A program made the position numbers and the translations under genes. Positions 38,138 to 47,018 of a DNA stretch of 64,000 bases are shown here, in pieces. How positions within the stretch are numbered: position 1 is the first letter of the stretch; every line of letters begins with the position of its first letter. A model generated the notes under the pieces. It was not told where the DNA came from and did not search any database. It worked only from the letters and a program-made list of their open reading frames with translations. Location: the NCBI GenBank assembly GCA_031973235.1, contig DALYDM010000001.1, positions 16,129 through 80,128 of the forward strand, read 5' to 3'. This stretch comes from Minisyncoccota bacterium (GTDB lineage: Bacteria; Patescibacteriota; Minisyncoccia; Phycocordibacterales; UBA9973).

Positions 38138-38596
38138 ATGAACAATCTTCAAGACTCAATTTCACAGCAAATTAAGGATGCAATGATGGCAAAGGATCAA
38201 GTTCGACTTGATACACTTCGAAGTGTGAAGTCTGCCTTCACTAATGAACTCGTCGCAAAAGGTCGTAAACCCACAGAATCACTTTCTGATGAGGAATGTA
38301 TAGCGGTTATTACAAGGCTTGCAAAGCAACGAAAGGATTCAATTGAGCAATTCACAAACGGCGGACGACCAGAACTTGCAGCAGAAGAGAAGGCCCAGCT
38401 TGATGTTCTTTCGGCATTTCTTCCTCAGATGATGTCAAAAGAAGATGTGATGAATATCGCAATCGCAAAAAAATCAGAACTTGGCATTGAAGACAAATCT
38501 AAAGCAGGAATTCTTATGTCTAATCTGATGAAAGACCTCAAAGGTAAGGCTGACGGTACATTAGTAAAAGAAGTTGTTGATTCTCTATTTTCATAA
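38138..38596 (+). CDS. GatB/YqeY domain protein
   Basis: 152 aa; IKDAMMAKDQVRLDTLRSVKSAFTNE...LAKQRKDSIEQF pattern. Confidence 0.75.
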   Translation: MNNLQDSISQQIKDAMMAKDQVRLDTLRSVKSAFTNELVAKGRKPTESLSDEECIAVITRLAKQRKDSIEQFTNGGRPELAAEEKAQLDVLSAFLPQMMSKEDVMNIAIAKKSELGIEDKSKAGILMSNLMKDLKGKADGTLVKEVVDSLFS

Positions 38597-42189: not shown

Positions 42190-43605
42190 ATGGAAAATAA
42201 ATACTATCCAACAATCGGCCTTGAAGTCCACGCAGAAATGAGCACTCGCTCAAAGATGTTTTGTGGATGTAAGAATGACCCAAACGAAGAGCGACCAAAC
42301 GTAAATATTTGTCCTGTGTGTATGGCACATCCAGGAACTCTTCCTGTGATCAATAAGCAGGCAGTTGAAAACGTCATCAAGGTAGGGCTTTCTTTTGGTG
42401 CGAATATTGCAACAGACTTCACAGAATTTGATAGAAAAAATTATTTCTATCCAGATATTCCAAAAGGGTATCAGATTTCTCAATACAAATTTCCAATCGT
42501 CTCAGGTGGTACACTCGCGGGAGTTGATATCACACGAGTACACCTCGAAGAAGATACTGGGAATAGCAAGCATGACCGTGGAAATTATTCGCTCGTGGAT
42601 TACAACCGTGCAGGTGTGCCACTCATGGAGCTTGTGACCGAACCTGTGATTCATAGTGCAGAGCAGGCGGCGCGTTTTGGACGAGAACTTCAACTTCTTC
42701 TTCAGTATCTTGGTGTGTCAGAAGCAAACATGGAAAAAGGTGAAATGCGCGTGGAAGCAAATATTTCTTTGTCTGATAATCCAGATAAATTTGGAACAAA
42801 AGTAGAAGTCAAAAACCTCAATTCATTTCGAAGTGTTGAGCGTGCAATAAAATACGAACTCGCTCGAATGCAAGACTTGTATGAAGCAGGACGTCAAAAT
42901 GAAATTGTCCAGGAAACTCGCGGATGGGATGAATCAAAGCAGGTTACATTTTCACAAAGAAAAAAAGAAGATAGTCATGACTATCGATATTTCCCAGATC
43001 CAGATTTGCCAAAGCTAGTTCTCAAAGAAGTGTTTGATATTGAGAAATTAAGAAGTGAACTCCCTGAGCTACCTGAAGCAAAGCGAGCAAGATATGCAAA
43101 TGAATTTGGAATCAAAGCAGAGGATATCGAGACTTTTGTAAATGATGTAATACTCGGAAAATGGTTTGAGCAAGTTGCAGAAATTCTCGGTGATAAAGAG
43201 AAGATTAAAATCGCATCAAATTACACAACTTCAGACTTATTGGGGTTGATGAAAAATGATACAGAAGCAAAAATTCCAAATGAAAATGCATTTGCGGAAC
43301 TGATTTCAATGCTCGCTGATGGCACTATGTCGTCACGTGGTGCAAAAGATATTCTTGCCGTGCTCACTAAAGAAGACATCTCACCTTTGAAGTATGCAGA
43401 AGAACACGACATGCTTCAGAAAAACGACGAAGGAGCACTCAAAGAAATAGCGCAAAAGATTATTGATGCAAATCCTGCAGTTGTGGCTACCTATAAGAGC
43501 GGAAAAGAAAATGCACTTATGTCGCTTGTCGGACAGATAATGAAAGAGACGAAGGGAAGTGCGAATCCTCAAATTGTGCAAAAGATATTGAAAGAATTGA
43601 TATAA
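42190..43605 (+). CDS. gatB: Asp/Glu-tRNA amidotransferase subunit B
   Basis: YPTIGLEVHAEMST.SKMFCGC...NICPVCMAHPGTLP and a GatB/YqeY C-terminus. Confidence 0.92.
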   Translation: MENKYYPTIGLEVHAEMSTRSKMFCGCKNDPNEERPNVNICPVCMAHPGTLPVINKQAVENVIKVGLSFGANIATDFTEFDRKNYFYPDIPKGYQISQYKFPIVSGGTLAGVDITRVHLEEDTGNSKHDRGNYSLVDYNRAGVPLMELVTEPVIHSAEQAARFGRELQLLLQYLGVSEANMEKGEMRVEANISLSDNPDKFGTKVEVKNLNSFRSVERAIKYELARMQDLYEAGRQNEIVQETRGWDESKQVTFSQRKKEDSHDYRYFPDPDLPKLVLKEVFDIEKLRSELPELPEAKRARYANEFGIKAEDIETFVNDVILGKWFEQVAEILGDKEKIKIASNYTTSDLLGLMKNDTEAKIPNENAFAELISMLADGTMSSRGAKDILAVLTKEDISPLKYAEEHDMLQKNDEGALKEIAQKIIDANPAVVATYKSGKENALMSLVGQIMKETKGSANPQIVQKILKELI

Positions 43606-43658: not shown

Positions 43659-44723
43659 ATGAAAACAATCAAAGTAGCAATCAATGGATTTGGTCGAATA
43701 GGAAGAGCGTTTTTAAAAATTGCGTGGGAACGTCCAGAAATTGAAATTGTAGCAATCAATGACCTTGGCTCTATCGAAAGCCTCGCATATCTTTTGCGTC
43801 ATGACACTGTATATCGAAATTGGCATCACAAAGTAGAGGTACATGGTGCATCAACAGATCCAAGCAATCCAGAAAGTGCAGAGCACTATCTCGTTATTGA
43901 TGGGAAAAAAGTACGTTTTGTTTCTGAAAAAGATTCTACAAAGCTTCCATGGAAAGCACTTGATATTGATGTGGTAGTAGAATCAACTGGACTCTTCACT
44001 GCATTTGATAAGGCAAAGTTTCATCTTGATCAGGGTGCGAAGAAGGTGGTGATTTCTGCACCAGCAAAGGGAAGTGACGGAAGTGTGGCTGGTGAGACAA
44101 TTCTTCTTGGTGTAAATGAAGACAAGTTTGGTACTTGTGACATCACTTCAAATGCATCATGTACAACAAATGCTGCATCACCACTGATTGCGATTCTACA
44201 TGAAGCTCTTGGAATCGAAAAAGCTATTTTGAATACTGTACACGGATACACTGCATCTCAAGCACTTGTTGATGGTCCAAGTAAAAAGGATTTGAGAGAA
44301 GGTCGTGCTGCTGCACAAAACATTGTGCCATCTTCAACAGGTGCAGCGATTGCTGTGACGAAAGCATTTCCGGAACTCACGGGACTATTTGATGGAATTT
44401 CAATTCGTGTTCCTGTTCCTGCTGGTTCGATTGTCGATATCACTTTTATTTCAAAGCGTGCAACTACTGCCGAAGAAGTGAATGCAATTTTGCGTACTGC
44501 AGCCAAGAATCCTCGATGGGAAAAGCTGTTCGCTGTCACAGATGAACCTCTTGTATCAAGCGACATACTCGGCAACTCTCATGCATCAATTGCTGATCTT
44601 GAAATGACTCGTGTCGTGGGTGGGAATTTGGTGAAAGTTATGGGTTGGTATGATAATGAAATGGGGTATACGTATACACTAGTAGACCACGTAATAAAAA
44701 CTGGAAGAAAAATTAATAATTAA
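43659..44723 (+). CDS. gapA: glyceraldehyde-3-phosphate dehydrogenase
   Basis: NAD-binding INGFGRIGR and catalytic SNASCTTN; start at ATG 43659 (MKTIKVAINGFGRIGR). Confidence 0.92.
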   Translation: MKTIKVAINGFGRIGRAFLKIAWERPEIEIVAINDLGSIESLAYLLRHDTVYRNWHHKVEVHGASTDPSNPESAEHYLVIDGKKVRFVSEKDSTKLPWKALDIDVVVESTGLFTAFDKAKFHLDQGAKKVVISAPAKGSDGSVAGETILLGVNEDKFGTCDITSNASCTTNAASPLIAILHEALGIEKAILNTVHGYTASQALVDGPSKKDLREGRAAAQNIVPSSTGAAIAVTKAFPELTGLFDGISIRVPVPAGSIVDITFISKRATTAEEVNAILRTAAKNPRWEKLFAVTDEPLVSSDILGNSHASIADLEMTRVVGGNLVKVMGWYDNEMGYTYTLVDHVIKTGRKINN

Positions 44724-44736
44724 TTTACTAACCACT

Positions 44737-44910
44737 ATGACTCTCATTGTAAAAGTTTTATCAACTATAGGCGCACTAGTATTCGTCATTGCAGGTGTCA
44801 CAGGGAAAATGCTACCATTTGGAGATTTTCTCCAGCATGGTGCATTGTTGAGAATCTTTGAAGTATTACTAGGCATGGTATTACTTTATAATGTTTCAAG
44901 ATTAAAATGA
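44737..44910 (+). CDS. small membrane protein (57 aa; below ORF-track cutoff)
   Basis: MTLIVKVLSTIGALVFVIAGVTGKMLPFGDFLQHGALLRIFEVLLGMVLLYNVSRLK lies between gapA and its duplicated 3' end. Confidence 0.3.
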   Translation: MTLIVKVLSTIGALVFVIAGVTGKMLPFGDFLQHGALLRIFEVLLGMVLLYNVSRLK

Positions 44911-44921
44911 CATGATATCGC

Positions 44922-44987
44922 AGTGAGAAAGGGTATACGTATACACTCGTGGATCATATGATTAAGACAGGGAACACAGTTAGGTAA
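44922..44987 (+). pseudogene. duplicated fragment of the gapA 3' end
   Basis: gggtatacgtatacactcgtggatcatatgattaagac... (GYTYTLVDHMIKTG) matches gggtatacgtatacactagtagaccacgtaataaaaac (GYTYTLVDHVIKTG) at the end of gapA, ~230 bp upstream. Confidence 0.6.
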
Positions 44988-45159
44988 CAAAACCAAATAT
45001 TTCGAGAAAAAGCTCTAAATTTAGGGCTTTTTATATTACTATTGACATTTATGCAAAAAGTTTTAGAATAAACATAAATAGTCCTTTCGAAATTTTTGAT
45101 TGGTGACCGGAGATTCAATACAATAATGGAATTTGTGGTAACCAATTAAAACAAAAAAA

Positions 45160-45498
45160 ATGAAAAATATAAATGAAATCCTCAAAATCATGAAAGGATT
45201 TGAGGCACTAAGTAATTTTAGCTTGAAAAAGGAAGTTACTTTTGAACAGGGTAATGGATCAATAAAGAATATACCGGTCATTGTTAGTCCTGGTGCGGTA
45301 TTTCGTGAAATCTTTGAAGACAGAACCCATGAATCATTTTCTTTCACTCCTTATGGAATAATCTCTCCTGGCGAGAAAATTATTTTATCAAAGGAAGAAA
45401 TCATATATTTGTTGAACAAAGAGCAGATAAAAATTATATCTTTTGATACAAACGGCATCCTGCTACATGGGTGCTGCTTTTTTATTTTTACTCGTTGA
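45160..45498 (+). CDS. hypothetical small protein
   Basis: 112 aa, no motifs. Confidence 0.3.
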   Translation: MKNINEILKIMKGFEALSNFSLKKEVTFEQGNGSIKNIPVIVSPGAVFREIFEDRTHESFSFTPYGIISPGEKIILSKEEIIYLLNKEQIKIISFDTNGILLHGCCFFIFTR

Positions 45499-45601
45499 TA
45501 TATAAACCTCTTCTTGGTAGACTAAAGGTAGGTGAGCCTACGTATCTTTATGTAGAATCTTGGAGTTTTAGTGAATTAGCAAATTAATAAATAAAATTTT
45601 T

Positions 45602-45952
45602 ATGGACAGCATGAATGAATCCAAAATCGATACCAACTTGAGACAAGCAGAGAATTCACCTAGTTTCTGGGAAGCATGGAAAGGAACAGCAGAAGGAGCT
45701 CTGGCTCATCTGGCAGAAGATATCTATGCCTATGAAGCAGAAAACAATGCATTCGGAAAAGGTATTGCGATAAATTATGGTGATAAAAATTTCTGGTATT
45801 CTCCAAGTGAAAAAGCATTATTTAATTCTGGAAACACTCGAATAACTTCTGAAGATATGAGAAGTATCGGGGATACTGTAATGCCAGAACAAATCAATCG
45901 ATTAATAGAACAAGCGTTACGCAATCTGGAGAAAAATGATGTAGTATCATAA
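45602..45952 (+). CDS. hypothetical small protein
   Basis: 116 aa, no motifs. Confidence 0.3.
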   Translation: MDSMNESKIDTNLRQAENSPSFWEAWKGTAEGALAHLAEDIYAYEAENNAFGKGIAINYGDKNFWYSPSEKALFNSGNTRITSEDMRSIGDTVMPEQINRLIEQALRNLEKNDVVS

Positions 45953-45977
45953 CTAATCAGCGTATACGTATGTACTT

Positions 45978-46268
45978 TTGGATTATGTTGTAAAAATAGA
46001 AATACAATTTAGTGCTATGGAAAACAACAATTTAATTGAAAATCAAATTGCATGGAATGTAACTGCCCAGAATATTTGGAATGAGTTTATTGGTGGAGGT
46101 AATGCACAACCGCTAGAAAATCAAGATGAAAGCCAGTATGTTGTAGAGAAACTCACATATCTTATGGAGCACAACGCAGAAAAGTACAGAGATATAGAAG
46201 GAATTGAAATCTATAAAAATATTACGAACTATATTCAAGACTTAAAAAATCTTCACAATCTCTCATAA
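45978..46268 (+). CDS. hypothetical small protein
   Basis: 96 aa, no motifs. Confidence 0.3.
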   Translation: MDYVVKIEIQFSAMENNNLIENQIAWNVTAQNIWNEFIGGGNAQPLENQDESQYVVEKLTYLMEHNAEKYRDIEGIEIYKNITNYIQDLKNLHNLS

Positions 46269-46311
46269 ATGCTAATTTTGGGAGATTTTTGTTTTGGGGT
46301 AGAATATACAC

Positions 46312-46575
46312 ATGGAACAAATGCCTCCAAATGAAAAACCTCGAAAAAGAAACGGATATGAATATACAGATTTTGATCTTGAAGAGTTCAAGAACCTAAA
46401 AACTGGATTGCAGATTGAGTTCATACGAGATGGTCATGTATTGAATGGAATAATTACTGATATTATCTCAATAAATGATATCAAGGTTTCAACCGGAGAA
46501 ACAAACGAAACGTATTCGTATGGAGTTACAACAACTCTGGCATTCGAAGATATTAAATATATAGGAAAGGAATAA
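46312..46575 (+). CDS. hypothetical small protein
   Basis: 87 aa, no motifs; stop abuts the rpiB start. Confidence 0.3.
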   Translation: MEQMPPNEKPRKRNGYEYTDFDLEEFKNLKTGLQIEFIRDGHVLNGIITDIISINDIKVSTGETNETYSYGVTTTLAFEDIKYIGKE

Positions 46576-46577
46576 TT

Positions 46578-47018
46578 ATGAAAATTTATCTCGGTACAGA
46601 TCATGCAGGTTTTGACCTCAAAGAAAAAGTAAAAGACCAACTCATTCTCGATGGATATGAGGTTGTTGATCTTGGTGCGAGTACTCTTGATATGGATGAT
46701 GATTATCCCGATTTTATTCGTCCAGTAGCTGAAGCAGTGTCAGGAGATTTTGAAGCGAAAGGAATTATTTTTGGAGCAAGTGGGCAAGGAGAAGCAATTG
46801 TCGCGAACCGTGTGGCAAAAGTCCGAGCGGTAGTTTACTATGGAGGAAATATCGACATCATCCGTCTTTCACGCGAACACAATGATGCAAATATTCTTTC
46901 TCTTGGCGCACGCATGATGCCCGAAGATGAAGCACTTTACTCAATCAAAATGTGGCTCGAGACTCCGTTCACAGAAGAAGAACGACATGTTCGCAGACTT
47001 GGAAAGATTGATATGTAA
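46578..47018 (+). CDS. rpiB: ribose-5-phosphate isomerase B
   Basis: KIYLGTDHAGFDLKE...GIIFGASGQGEAIVANRV...LGAR. Confidence 0.9.
   Translation: MKIYLGTDHAGFDLKEKVKDQLILDGYEVVDLGASTLDMDDDYPDFIRPVAEAVSGDFEAKGIIFGASGQGEAIVANRVAKVRAVVYYGGNIDIIRLSREHNDANILSLGARMMPEDEALYSIKMWLETPFTEEERHVRRLGKIDM

Follow-up and report, generated by a model that had tools for sequence, protein, structure and literature searches.

The 3' end of gapA as a probable attachment site for tyrosine-integrase elements in Paceibacteria, with stacked integrase-less cassettes between gapA and rpiB

We analysed a 64,000-nucleotide stretch of DNA (hereafter the window) from a bacterium of the Paceibacteria/Nomurabacteria type, a member of the candidate phyla radiation (CPR), and propose that the 3' end of its glyceraldehyde-3-phosphate dehydrogenase gene, gapA, very probably represents the attachment site (attB) of Paceibacteria elements that use a tyrosine integrase, tailed temperate phages among them, and that the islet of small genes between gapA and rpiB in the window is a stack of integrase-less cassettes. 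The window is of low GC content (37.5%), and its closest relatives are metagenome-assembled genomes (MAGs) labelled Paceibacterota, Nomurabacteria or 'Saccharibacteria'. We compared it with gapA-type loci (designated by L-numbers), 80 from genomes and 80 from metagenomes, 114 unique loci being used for spacer lengths. An original prediction, made from the window alone, had described a duplication of the gapA 3' end as the scar of a single insertion; the scar is upheld, with the amendment that at least two or three nested events appear to have left it, that a third copy of the gapA end had been missed and that no integrase remains in the window.

The GapA protein ends in WYDNEMGYTYTLVDHVIKTGRKINN, and a second in-frame copy of this C-terminus, GYTYTLVDHMIKTGNTVR, is encoded up to a stop codon at positions 44931-44987. 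At the nucleotide level two further versions of the final ~75 nt of gapA lie downstream, namely the well-kept copy 2, which spans 44913-44987 with its left arm beginning at 44913, and the decayed copy 3 (45942-46001). Copies 1 and 2 start 267 bp apart, and the only exact block shared between them is the 17-nt sequence GGGTATACGTATACACT (44664-44680 = 44931-44947), which includes a 12-nt palindrome, GTATACGTATAC. Over 14 codons (GYTYTLVDHVIKTG) the two differ at 10 of 42 nt, eight of the nine changed codons being synonymous. The duplication that had been predicted is thus real, its identity being 76% over these 42 nt rather than ~78%; copy 2 begins 207 nt past the gapA stop, to which the predicted distance of 230 bp was an approximation, and the 57-residue open reading frame (ORF57) said to lie between the copies is present. 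A search with the 16-mer GGTATACGTATACACT, allowing up to three mismatches, returned six matches against 0.17 expected, and in a window-wide scan of every ORF C-terminus against its surroundings the gapA pair scored 80 against a background maximum of 43, gapA being the sole gene with a downstream C-terminal echo.

Copy 3, AYTYVLLDYVVKIE, directly abuts the stop codon of ORF116 and occupies the same place relative to that gene in two relatives (L270 and L269). Taken alone it is weak (nhmmer E = 0.56; peptide score 45 against the background of 43); when the orthologous copy of L270 was slid over both strands, three of 127,858 positions reached at least 42 of 72 nt, and these are the three copies. 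Two further candidates were rejected: a very decayed fourth copy before ORF116 (45535-45590), plausible by eye, fared no better than shuffled sequence against the junctions of L270, L269 and L267, and a supposed copy before ORF87 is actually a terminator/promoter region homologous to that of L001 and L002. Separately, the C-terminal peptide of GatB (43540-43605) is weakly echoed (score 41) at 38525-38590, ~3.6 kb upstream; this echo is probably a protein with a YqeY/GatB-like domain rather than a scar.

The copies begin at the Trp codon of WYDNE, after (TG)ACA, and examination of their codons reveals that they are hybrids: the left part (WYDNEMG) is degenerate, and the right part, from YTYTLVDHVIKTG to the stop, is kept at the protein level with mostly synonymous change. 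Comparison of nine well-kept copies with the resident gene gives 51 identical, 53 synonymous and 13 non-synonymous codons in the right half (YT...KTG), and 18, 14 and 31 respectively in the left half. The two loci closest to the window, L001 and L002 (GapA 94% and 92% identical), have tails with 0.82-0.90 identity to the displaced right half of copy 2 (0.90, or 92% by blastn, for L002) and 0.69-0.73 to the current gapA tail of the window (0.73 for L002). Left halves behave oppositely, the native one in the 44646-44680 region being 95-100% identical to L001 and L002 and the left arm of copy 2 merely 57-62%. Likewise, in L037 compared with L035 the displaced half has an identity of 0.86 and the resident tail of 0.59, with an identical tail GSK before the stop, and in L026 and L067 the displaced half is nearer to the gapA tails of relatives than the resident tail is. 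This opposite behavior of the right and left halves argues for a switch in the core GGGTAYAC and for an imported origin of the present gapA tail. TAYAC is invariant across all 20 of 20 aligned sites, including those adjacent to an integrase. Despite its imported end gapA is full length, the native end being displaced downstream.

The unusual tail of the window ends in G-R-K-I-N-N; its counterpart in L271 and L275, two loci with ORF57 directly after gapA, is G-R-T-I-N-N, while L001 and L002 end in KTI and lack ORF57. Between the window and L271 the identity is 0.70 for the gapA body, 0.79 for the tail, 0.84 for ORF57 and 0.67 for the right half of copy 2, a pattern that would be expected if tail, ORF57 and left arm had moved as a unit; ORF57 has thus probably arrived together with the present gapA tail. 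At the other end of the unit, the junction motif TGACA+TGGTAY is common to the phage attachment (att) sites of L272 and L276 and to cassettes in L086, L121, L133, L019 and L269, and the att site of L265 shares just its ACA+TGGTAY part.

About 140 related Paceibacteria loci share the gene order gatB-gapA-...-rpiB-rpe-tkt, and comparison of their gapA-rpiB regions, as suggested with the original prediction, revealed a variable spacer and additional gapA ends. Among the 114 unique loci the spacer measures 0-4789 bp, with rpiB starting 0-8 nt after the gapA stop in 15 of them, and an all-against-all comparison showed the spacer ORFs to be mostly singletons. A search with a profile of the gapA end recovered extra copies in about 20 loci (L006, L026, L032 with two, L033, L037, L046, L067, L075, L079, L085, L086, L091, L121, L133, L269, L270, L271 and L272 among them), all within the spacer and in the orientation of gapA (+). 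Different loci have unrelated ORFs enclosed by the primary and secondary copies, which points to independent insertions. Most cassette loci with a secondary copy contain a single intact, co-oriented ORF that starts 0-19 nt after the tail stop and ends in, or a few nt before, the left arm. The left arms themselves recur with unrelated ORFs, one variant, TGGTATCGTAAY, in the window, L271, L270 and L046, and another, TGGTAYAATAAC, in L006, L040, L067 and L085. Cassettes with ORF116 and ORF57 turn up again in genomes with GapA proteins of just 77-84% identity. Other spacer cargo, judged by eye, includes Fic/DOC-like (HPFxxGNGR), MazG-like pyrophosphatase and cysteine-synthase-like genes (L019 at 1135-1683; the first ORF of L020, L024, L026 and L112; L023; L156), and dapF, also by eye, lies on the opposite strand in 18 loci.

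Prophages start directly after gapA in L074, L061, L144, L254/L163, L251, L253 and L262, and encode an AAA ATPase, RusA, a ParB-methylase, terminase, portal and an HK97-type capsid. A remnant of such a prophage is seen in L054, where ~280 nt of the left end are retained after gapA. Beside this truncated end, at spacer offsets 250-510 after gapA, lies a fragment resembling OrfA of an IS3-type transposase (by eye), suggesting that other mobile DNA also accumulates in the spacer.

The right ends of the prophages link these sites to an integrase. In L265 the tail and lysis genes are followed by a tyrosine integrase (PF00589 Phage_integrase, E = 4e-21), and 370 nt past it the sequence ...ttaca+TGGTATGATAACGAAATGGGGTATACG... 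runs to a stop, succeeded by a 129-aa gene and rpiB. A homolog of ORF57 with 81% identity (P0013) led to two nearly identical strains, L271 and L272. The former reads gapA, ORF57, copy, 118 aa, 60 aa, rpiB; the latter reads integrase, 83-aa ORF, ...gctgACA+TGGTACGACAAC...RTINN and stop, followed by the same ORF57, copy, 118 aa, 60 aa and rpiB, and the homology between the two (97%) begins exactly at CA+TGGTAC. They are thus an empty/occupied pair, in which a complete element has integrated in tandem with a resident ORF57 cassette. L276 shares an IMG/VR contig with the prophage of L251 and has an integrase, with 79% identity to the L272 enzyme, some 37 kb away from the gapA end; this integrase is followed by cagctgACA+TGGTACAGCAATGAACTAGGGTACACATACACC...AGRLV and stop, and then by the left end of a second, related prophage. 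L276 (7100-13134) and L251, both from IMGVR_UViG_3300025323_000513, contain two prophages (65-78% nucleotide identity), the first of ~37 kb, in tandem at gapA and separated by the integrase and a hybrid att site. This junction shows that the phage site itself holds a mimic of the gapA end, the left half of which (WYSNEL) is degenerate. The three integrases (L265, L272 and L276) are 64-79% identical, each lying about 0.4-0.5 kb before its att copy. The prediction that an element had integrated at the gapA 3' end with a replacement copy thus gains support from these integrase-bearing prophages, which share the boundary of the cassettes, from the resemblance of the displaced copy to the L001 and L002 tails, and from the pairing of the unusual present tail with ORF57 in distant genomes.

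Searches for homologs of these integrases in the remaining compared loci found none, the exact cassette-type left-arm pattern had no match in viral contigs, and a viral-contig search with the methyltransferase of L074 returned 80 unrelated phages and was uninformative. Members of the same phage family (AAA ATPase 91-94% identical) also occur elsewhere, after a CAP/SCP-like gene near rpmA (L244, 1-2300; L246, 1-3100), so the family appears to have switched attachment sites. At the start of L251 (1-230) the imported tail extends GapA by ~25 residues beyond its usual end (...HVIAAASYLLPEEEGRQMRINAGIWTNGRDGQK), the enzyme having thereby been lengthened by integration.

These observations can be accommodated by the following scheme. 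The element would have in its attP a sequence that mimics the final ~75 nt of gapA, and recombination in or near the core GGGTAYAC would join the native gene to the element-borne tail; we predict that the overlap region lies within GGGTAYACNTAYAC. As the element supplies a replacement tail, GapA stays intact, and the former tail would be displaced downstream, behind a degenerate left arm derived from the element. Repeated integration proximal to gapA, with loss or absence of the integrase, would then yield small integrase-less cassettes stacked between gapA and rpiB, which may still be mobilizable in trans. In the window the newest cassette would comprise the current tail, ORF57 and the left arm (44681-44933), behind which would lie the displaced tail with its terminator, a self-contained ORF112 unit and an older ORF116 cassette with the decayed copy 3; ORF83 and then the ancestral ORF87-rpiB unit would follow.

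Several observations weigh against this scheme, or against parts of it. Neither a tyrosine-recombinase motif nor tblastn with the L265 and L272 integrases revealed an integrase in the 64-kb window. No similarity was seen between the interiors of the cassettes and the prophages, so that an origin of the former from the latter by deletion is hypothetical. In most cassette loci a single intact ORF exactly fills the gap between tail stop and left arm, unlike what random deletion would be expected to leave. The gapA-end copy expected before ORF116 is not detectable in the window, and the position of the crossover is based on short segments of 21-54 nt. Finally, rare residues are common to the primary and secondary tails of L270, of L046 and of L032, yet the two tails differ at synonymous sites, which would need same-clade donors or continuing selection on the displaced copy. 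As for the motif search, its match in the window was the transketolase only.

The single intact ORF per cassette, together with left-arm variants shared by unrelated ORFs, leaves open a variant that we hold to be possible but doubtful, namely that the small gapA-linked units (replacement tail, one ORF and left arm, without a recombinase of their own) are distinct miniature mobile cassettes, which phage integrases insert, stack and exchange in trans. If true, they would constitute a functionally integron-like gene-capture site in CPR bacteria, the attachment sequence of which is itself a coding sequence. An integron-like system proper, in which a trans-acting integrase would capture promoterless single ORFs with a gapA-end site and shuffle them at gapA, seems to us unlikely: it would fit the close packing of one co-oriented ORF between tail stop and left arm, the sharing of arms and the recurrence of the ORF116 and ORF57 cassettes across divergent hosts, but neither a resident integrase nor an attI-like arrangement lies beside the array, the sites lack attC-like folding, the arrays are short (one or two detectable sites), and the high coding density of CPR genomes could alone trim non-coding DNA. 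Insertion by RecA, whereby circularised fragments with a piece of the gapA 3' end would enter by a single homologous (Campbell-type) crossover without a dedicated integrase, agrees with the homology of 70-90 nt, with the native-to-imported switch falling in the longest identical block and with the want of an integrase in the window. Random fragments should have random boundaries, however, and the left boundary is fixed at (TG)ACA+TGGTAY in independent cassettes with unrelated ORFs and is found again about 0.4-0.5 kb after the integrase genes of L265, L272 and L276, which makes this route quite improbable in general, although individual cassettes may have arisen by it.

We consider it most improbable that the repeats are a functional RNA or regulatory element (a structured 3' untranslated region, processing site or attenuator) duplicated for expression control. 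The core is indeed a perfect 12-nt palindrome and a terminator hairpin follows copy 2, but Rfam yielded nothing above chance, shuffled sequence folds as well as copies 1 and 3 do, and the z-score of -2.6 for the copy 2 region is tentatively attributed to the downstream hairpin. Moreover, relatives differ at the third codon positions of the core, and the right half varies as codons do (53 synonymous against 13 non-synonymous changes). A conserved structured 3' untranslated region, which the original prediction had named as its refutation, is therefore not what the relatives display: their duplicates flank unrelated ORFs, vary like codons and fold no better than shuffled. An assembly artefact or local tandem duplication, which a source derived from a metagenome might suggest, is hardly credible at all. 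The same array was recovered in independent Logan assemblies of two sequencing runs (L081 and L082), which argues against an artefact, analogous structures occur in about 20 MAGs or contigs of different studies, and the copies differ at 24% of positions with unrelated DNA between them.

Thus, an integrase-mediated origin remains the favored explanation, and it has clear parallels among known systems. In streptococci, arrays of integrative and conjugative, integrative and mobilizable, and cis-mobilizable elements (ICEs, IMEs, CIMEs and microCIMEs; the ICESt1/ICESt3 family) sit at the 3' ends of fda, rpmG and rpsI (PMC7563491). As in the streptococcal CIMEs, a tyrosine integrase aims at the 3' end of a housekeeping gene (fda too is glycolytic), direct att repeats flank the elements, and integrase-less derivatives with few or no cargo genes occur; the insert of L037, of ~100 nt, is comparable to a streptococcal microCIME. 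CIME accretion likewise finds its counterpart in the complete element standing in tandem with a resident cassette in L272 and in the two related tandem prophages of L276. The window islet agrees with a CIME in being flanked by att sites and devoid of an integrase motif, its enclosed ORFs belonging to no Pfam or PHROG family. Unlike in Streptococcus, the complete elements here are tailed prophages rather than conjugative elements and the hosts are CPR bacteria. The gapA cassettes are also much smaller (0.27-1.7 kb), tightly packed and usually limited to a single ORF. CIMEs derive from complete elements by deletion; such a derivation is hypothetical for the cassettes, in which no resemblance to the prophages was seen, and a true prophage remnant occurs at this site in L054.

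Of the general traits of integration at a gene's 3' end, flanking repeats and an intact target with an imported end are found in the window, and an adjoining recombinase only in L265, L272 and L276. Empty and occupied sites are represented by L271 versus L272, by L001 and L002, which lack 44724-46274, and by the 15 loci in which rpiB abuts gapA. A metagenome scan found no relative above 88%, so an isogenic empty site for its own cassettes is not available, and an exact look-up of its GapA protein sequence yielded no record.

A classical case of this kind is phage 21 and e14 in icd of E. coli, where attP bears an alternative 3' end of a metabolic gene, so that the enzyme stays intact and the displaced native 3' fragment, with mainly synonymous differences, lies at the far end. 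Unlike at gapA, each is a single element with its own integrase, and arrays of small cassettes are not known there. Integron cassettes resemble the gapA units in consisting of single ORFs, co-oriented and for the most part without a promoter, that each have a recombination site behind them, and the better-preserved site lies nearer gapA in the window and in L032, which would fit proximal insertion. They differ in that no intI/attI/Pc platform is present at gapA, the array starts inside gapA itself and is very short, and the sites are copies of coding sequence that fold no better than shuffled, unlike attC hairpins. The mechanism itself is therefore the familiar integrase/CIME scheme; the site and the host group appear unreported, our literature searches, which were incomplete in coverage, having turned up no account of either a gapA attachment site or att sites of Patescibacteria prophages.

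The mobile elements of CPR bacteria (Patescibacteria) are poorly charted. A concrete attachment site (the gapA 3' end with the core GGGTAYAC) can now be proposed for them together with a matching tyrosine integrase family, and the analysis also defines a group of related tailed prophages of ~37 kb and, across about 140 loci, a hypervariable hotspot between gapA and rpiB. The hotspot explains the origin of a share of the lineage-specific small hypothetical genes of these reduced genomes. In practical terms, the gapA 3' end could serve as a marker for prophages and strain-variable cargo in MAGs, and the integrase/attB pair could be tried for site-specific insertion in organisms with almost no genetic tools.

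Table 1. Features of the gapA-rpiB locus, in window coordinates
Feature	Positions	Strand	Evidence or remark
gapA (GAPDH), intact; probable attachment-site gene	43659..44723	+	Pfam Gp_dh_N 7e-33, Gp_dh_C 9e-52
Native left half of site (TGG TAT GAT AAT GAA ATG) with 17-nt core GGGTATACGTATACACT	44646..44680	+	predicted crossover region
Putatively imported replacement gapA tail LVDHVIKTGRKINN, to stop	44681..44723	+	tail shared with ORF57-bearing L271 and L275
ORF57 (57 aa), cargo of the putative newest cassette	44737..44910	+	two transmembrane segments predicted by eye
Left arm of copy 2, probably element-derived: AAAATGACA + TGA TAT CGC AGT GAG AAA GGG	44904..44933	+	junction motif TGACA+TGGTAY
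Putative displaced earlier gapA tail YTYTLVDHMIKTGNTVR, to stop; attR-type right half	44934..44987	+	nhmmer E = 5e-11
Hairpin and T-run AAAAAGCTCTAAATTTAGGGCTTTTT	45007..45032	+	11-bp stem predicted in fold of 44904-45040, z = -2.6
ORF112 module: near-consensus promoter-like TTGACA-16-TAGAAT (45042-45069), ORF112 (112 aa; 45160-45498), terminator-like hairpin (45453-45476)	45042..45498	+	promoter/terminator scan
ORF116 (116 aa), cargo of a putative older single-gene cassette	45602..45952	+	recurs in other genomes
Copy 3: left arm AAAATGATG + TAG TAT CAT AAC, then decayed tail AYTYVLLDYVVKIE	45934..46001	+	overlaps ORF116 stop
ORF83 (83 aa from ATG; listed as 96 aa from a TTG start)	46017..46268	+	35%-identical homolog directly after gapA in L003
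Ancestral spacer part: terminator remnant, promoter-like TTGGGA-16-TAGAAT (46278-46305), ORF87 (87 aa; 46312-46575)	46275..46575	+	collinear with L002 and L001
rpiB, conserved right flank of the hotspot	46578..47018	+	Pfam LacAB_rpiB 1.7e-38

The DNA specific to the window relative to L002 extends over 44724-46274, and is absent from both L001 and L002 (Table 1). The stop codon of ORF57 falls within the left arm of copy 2, and this small protein forms five clusters among 5.8 billion sequences; every homolog that was looked up immediately follows gapA or, in the case of L272, the attR copy, and a weaker tblastn match in L017 lies just before rpiB instead. The hairpin behind copy 2 is probably a terminator that accompanied the displaced tail, and L001 and L002 likewise have a terminator directly after gapA. 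No tRNA was found near the gapA-rpiB region.

The four ORFs downstream of copy 2, of 112, 116, 83 and 87 aa, were present as predicted, but their description as lineage-specific orphans applies to ORF112 alone, since relatives carry homologs of the other three at the corresponding locus. Among 5.8 billion proteins ORF112 found no homolog but itself and is thus a true orphan; its leader (45083-45162) contains an Rfam mir-315 match (E = 0.18) that is well below the gathering score and that we regard as chance. The ORF116 family has ten clusters (67-100% identical), and its members directly follow gapA in L267, L269 and L270, the gapA-end copy coming next in L270 and L269. An AlphaFold2 model of ORF116 (mean predicted local distance difference test score 72) gave no match at E <= 0.001 in PDB or BFVD, and Pfam and PHROG scans of the five small islet ORFs gave nothing above chance. 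The homologs of ORF87 in L002 and L001 (50% and 75% identical) are the sole genes between gapA and rpiB there.

Among ORFs starting no more than 25 nt after the gapA stop in 63 related loci, 26 (41%) begin with Met-Glu (ATGGAA), compared with 13% of the long ORFs in the same loci; examples are seen in L003, L032 and L075, and in the window in ORF83 (46017) and ORF87 (46312). This may be a preference linked to translational coupling or part of a conserved cassette 5' end. The two nearly identical strains L271 and L272 also differ beyond rpiB (L271 5946-6380 versus L272 3235-3597): an Imm44-domain gene lies between rpe and tkt in L271 only, and a gene of the 23S_rRNA_IVP family (four-helix bundle) lies between rpiB and rpe in L272 only, a gene of the same family following attR in L265.

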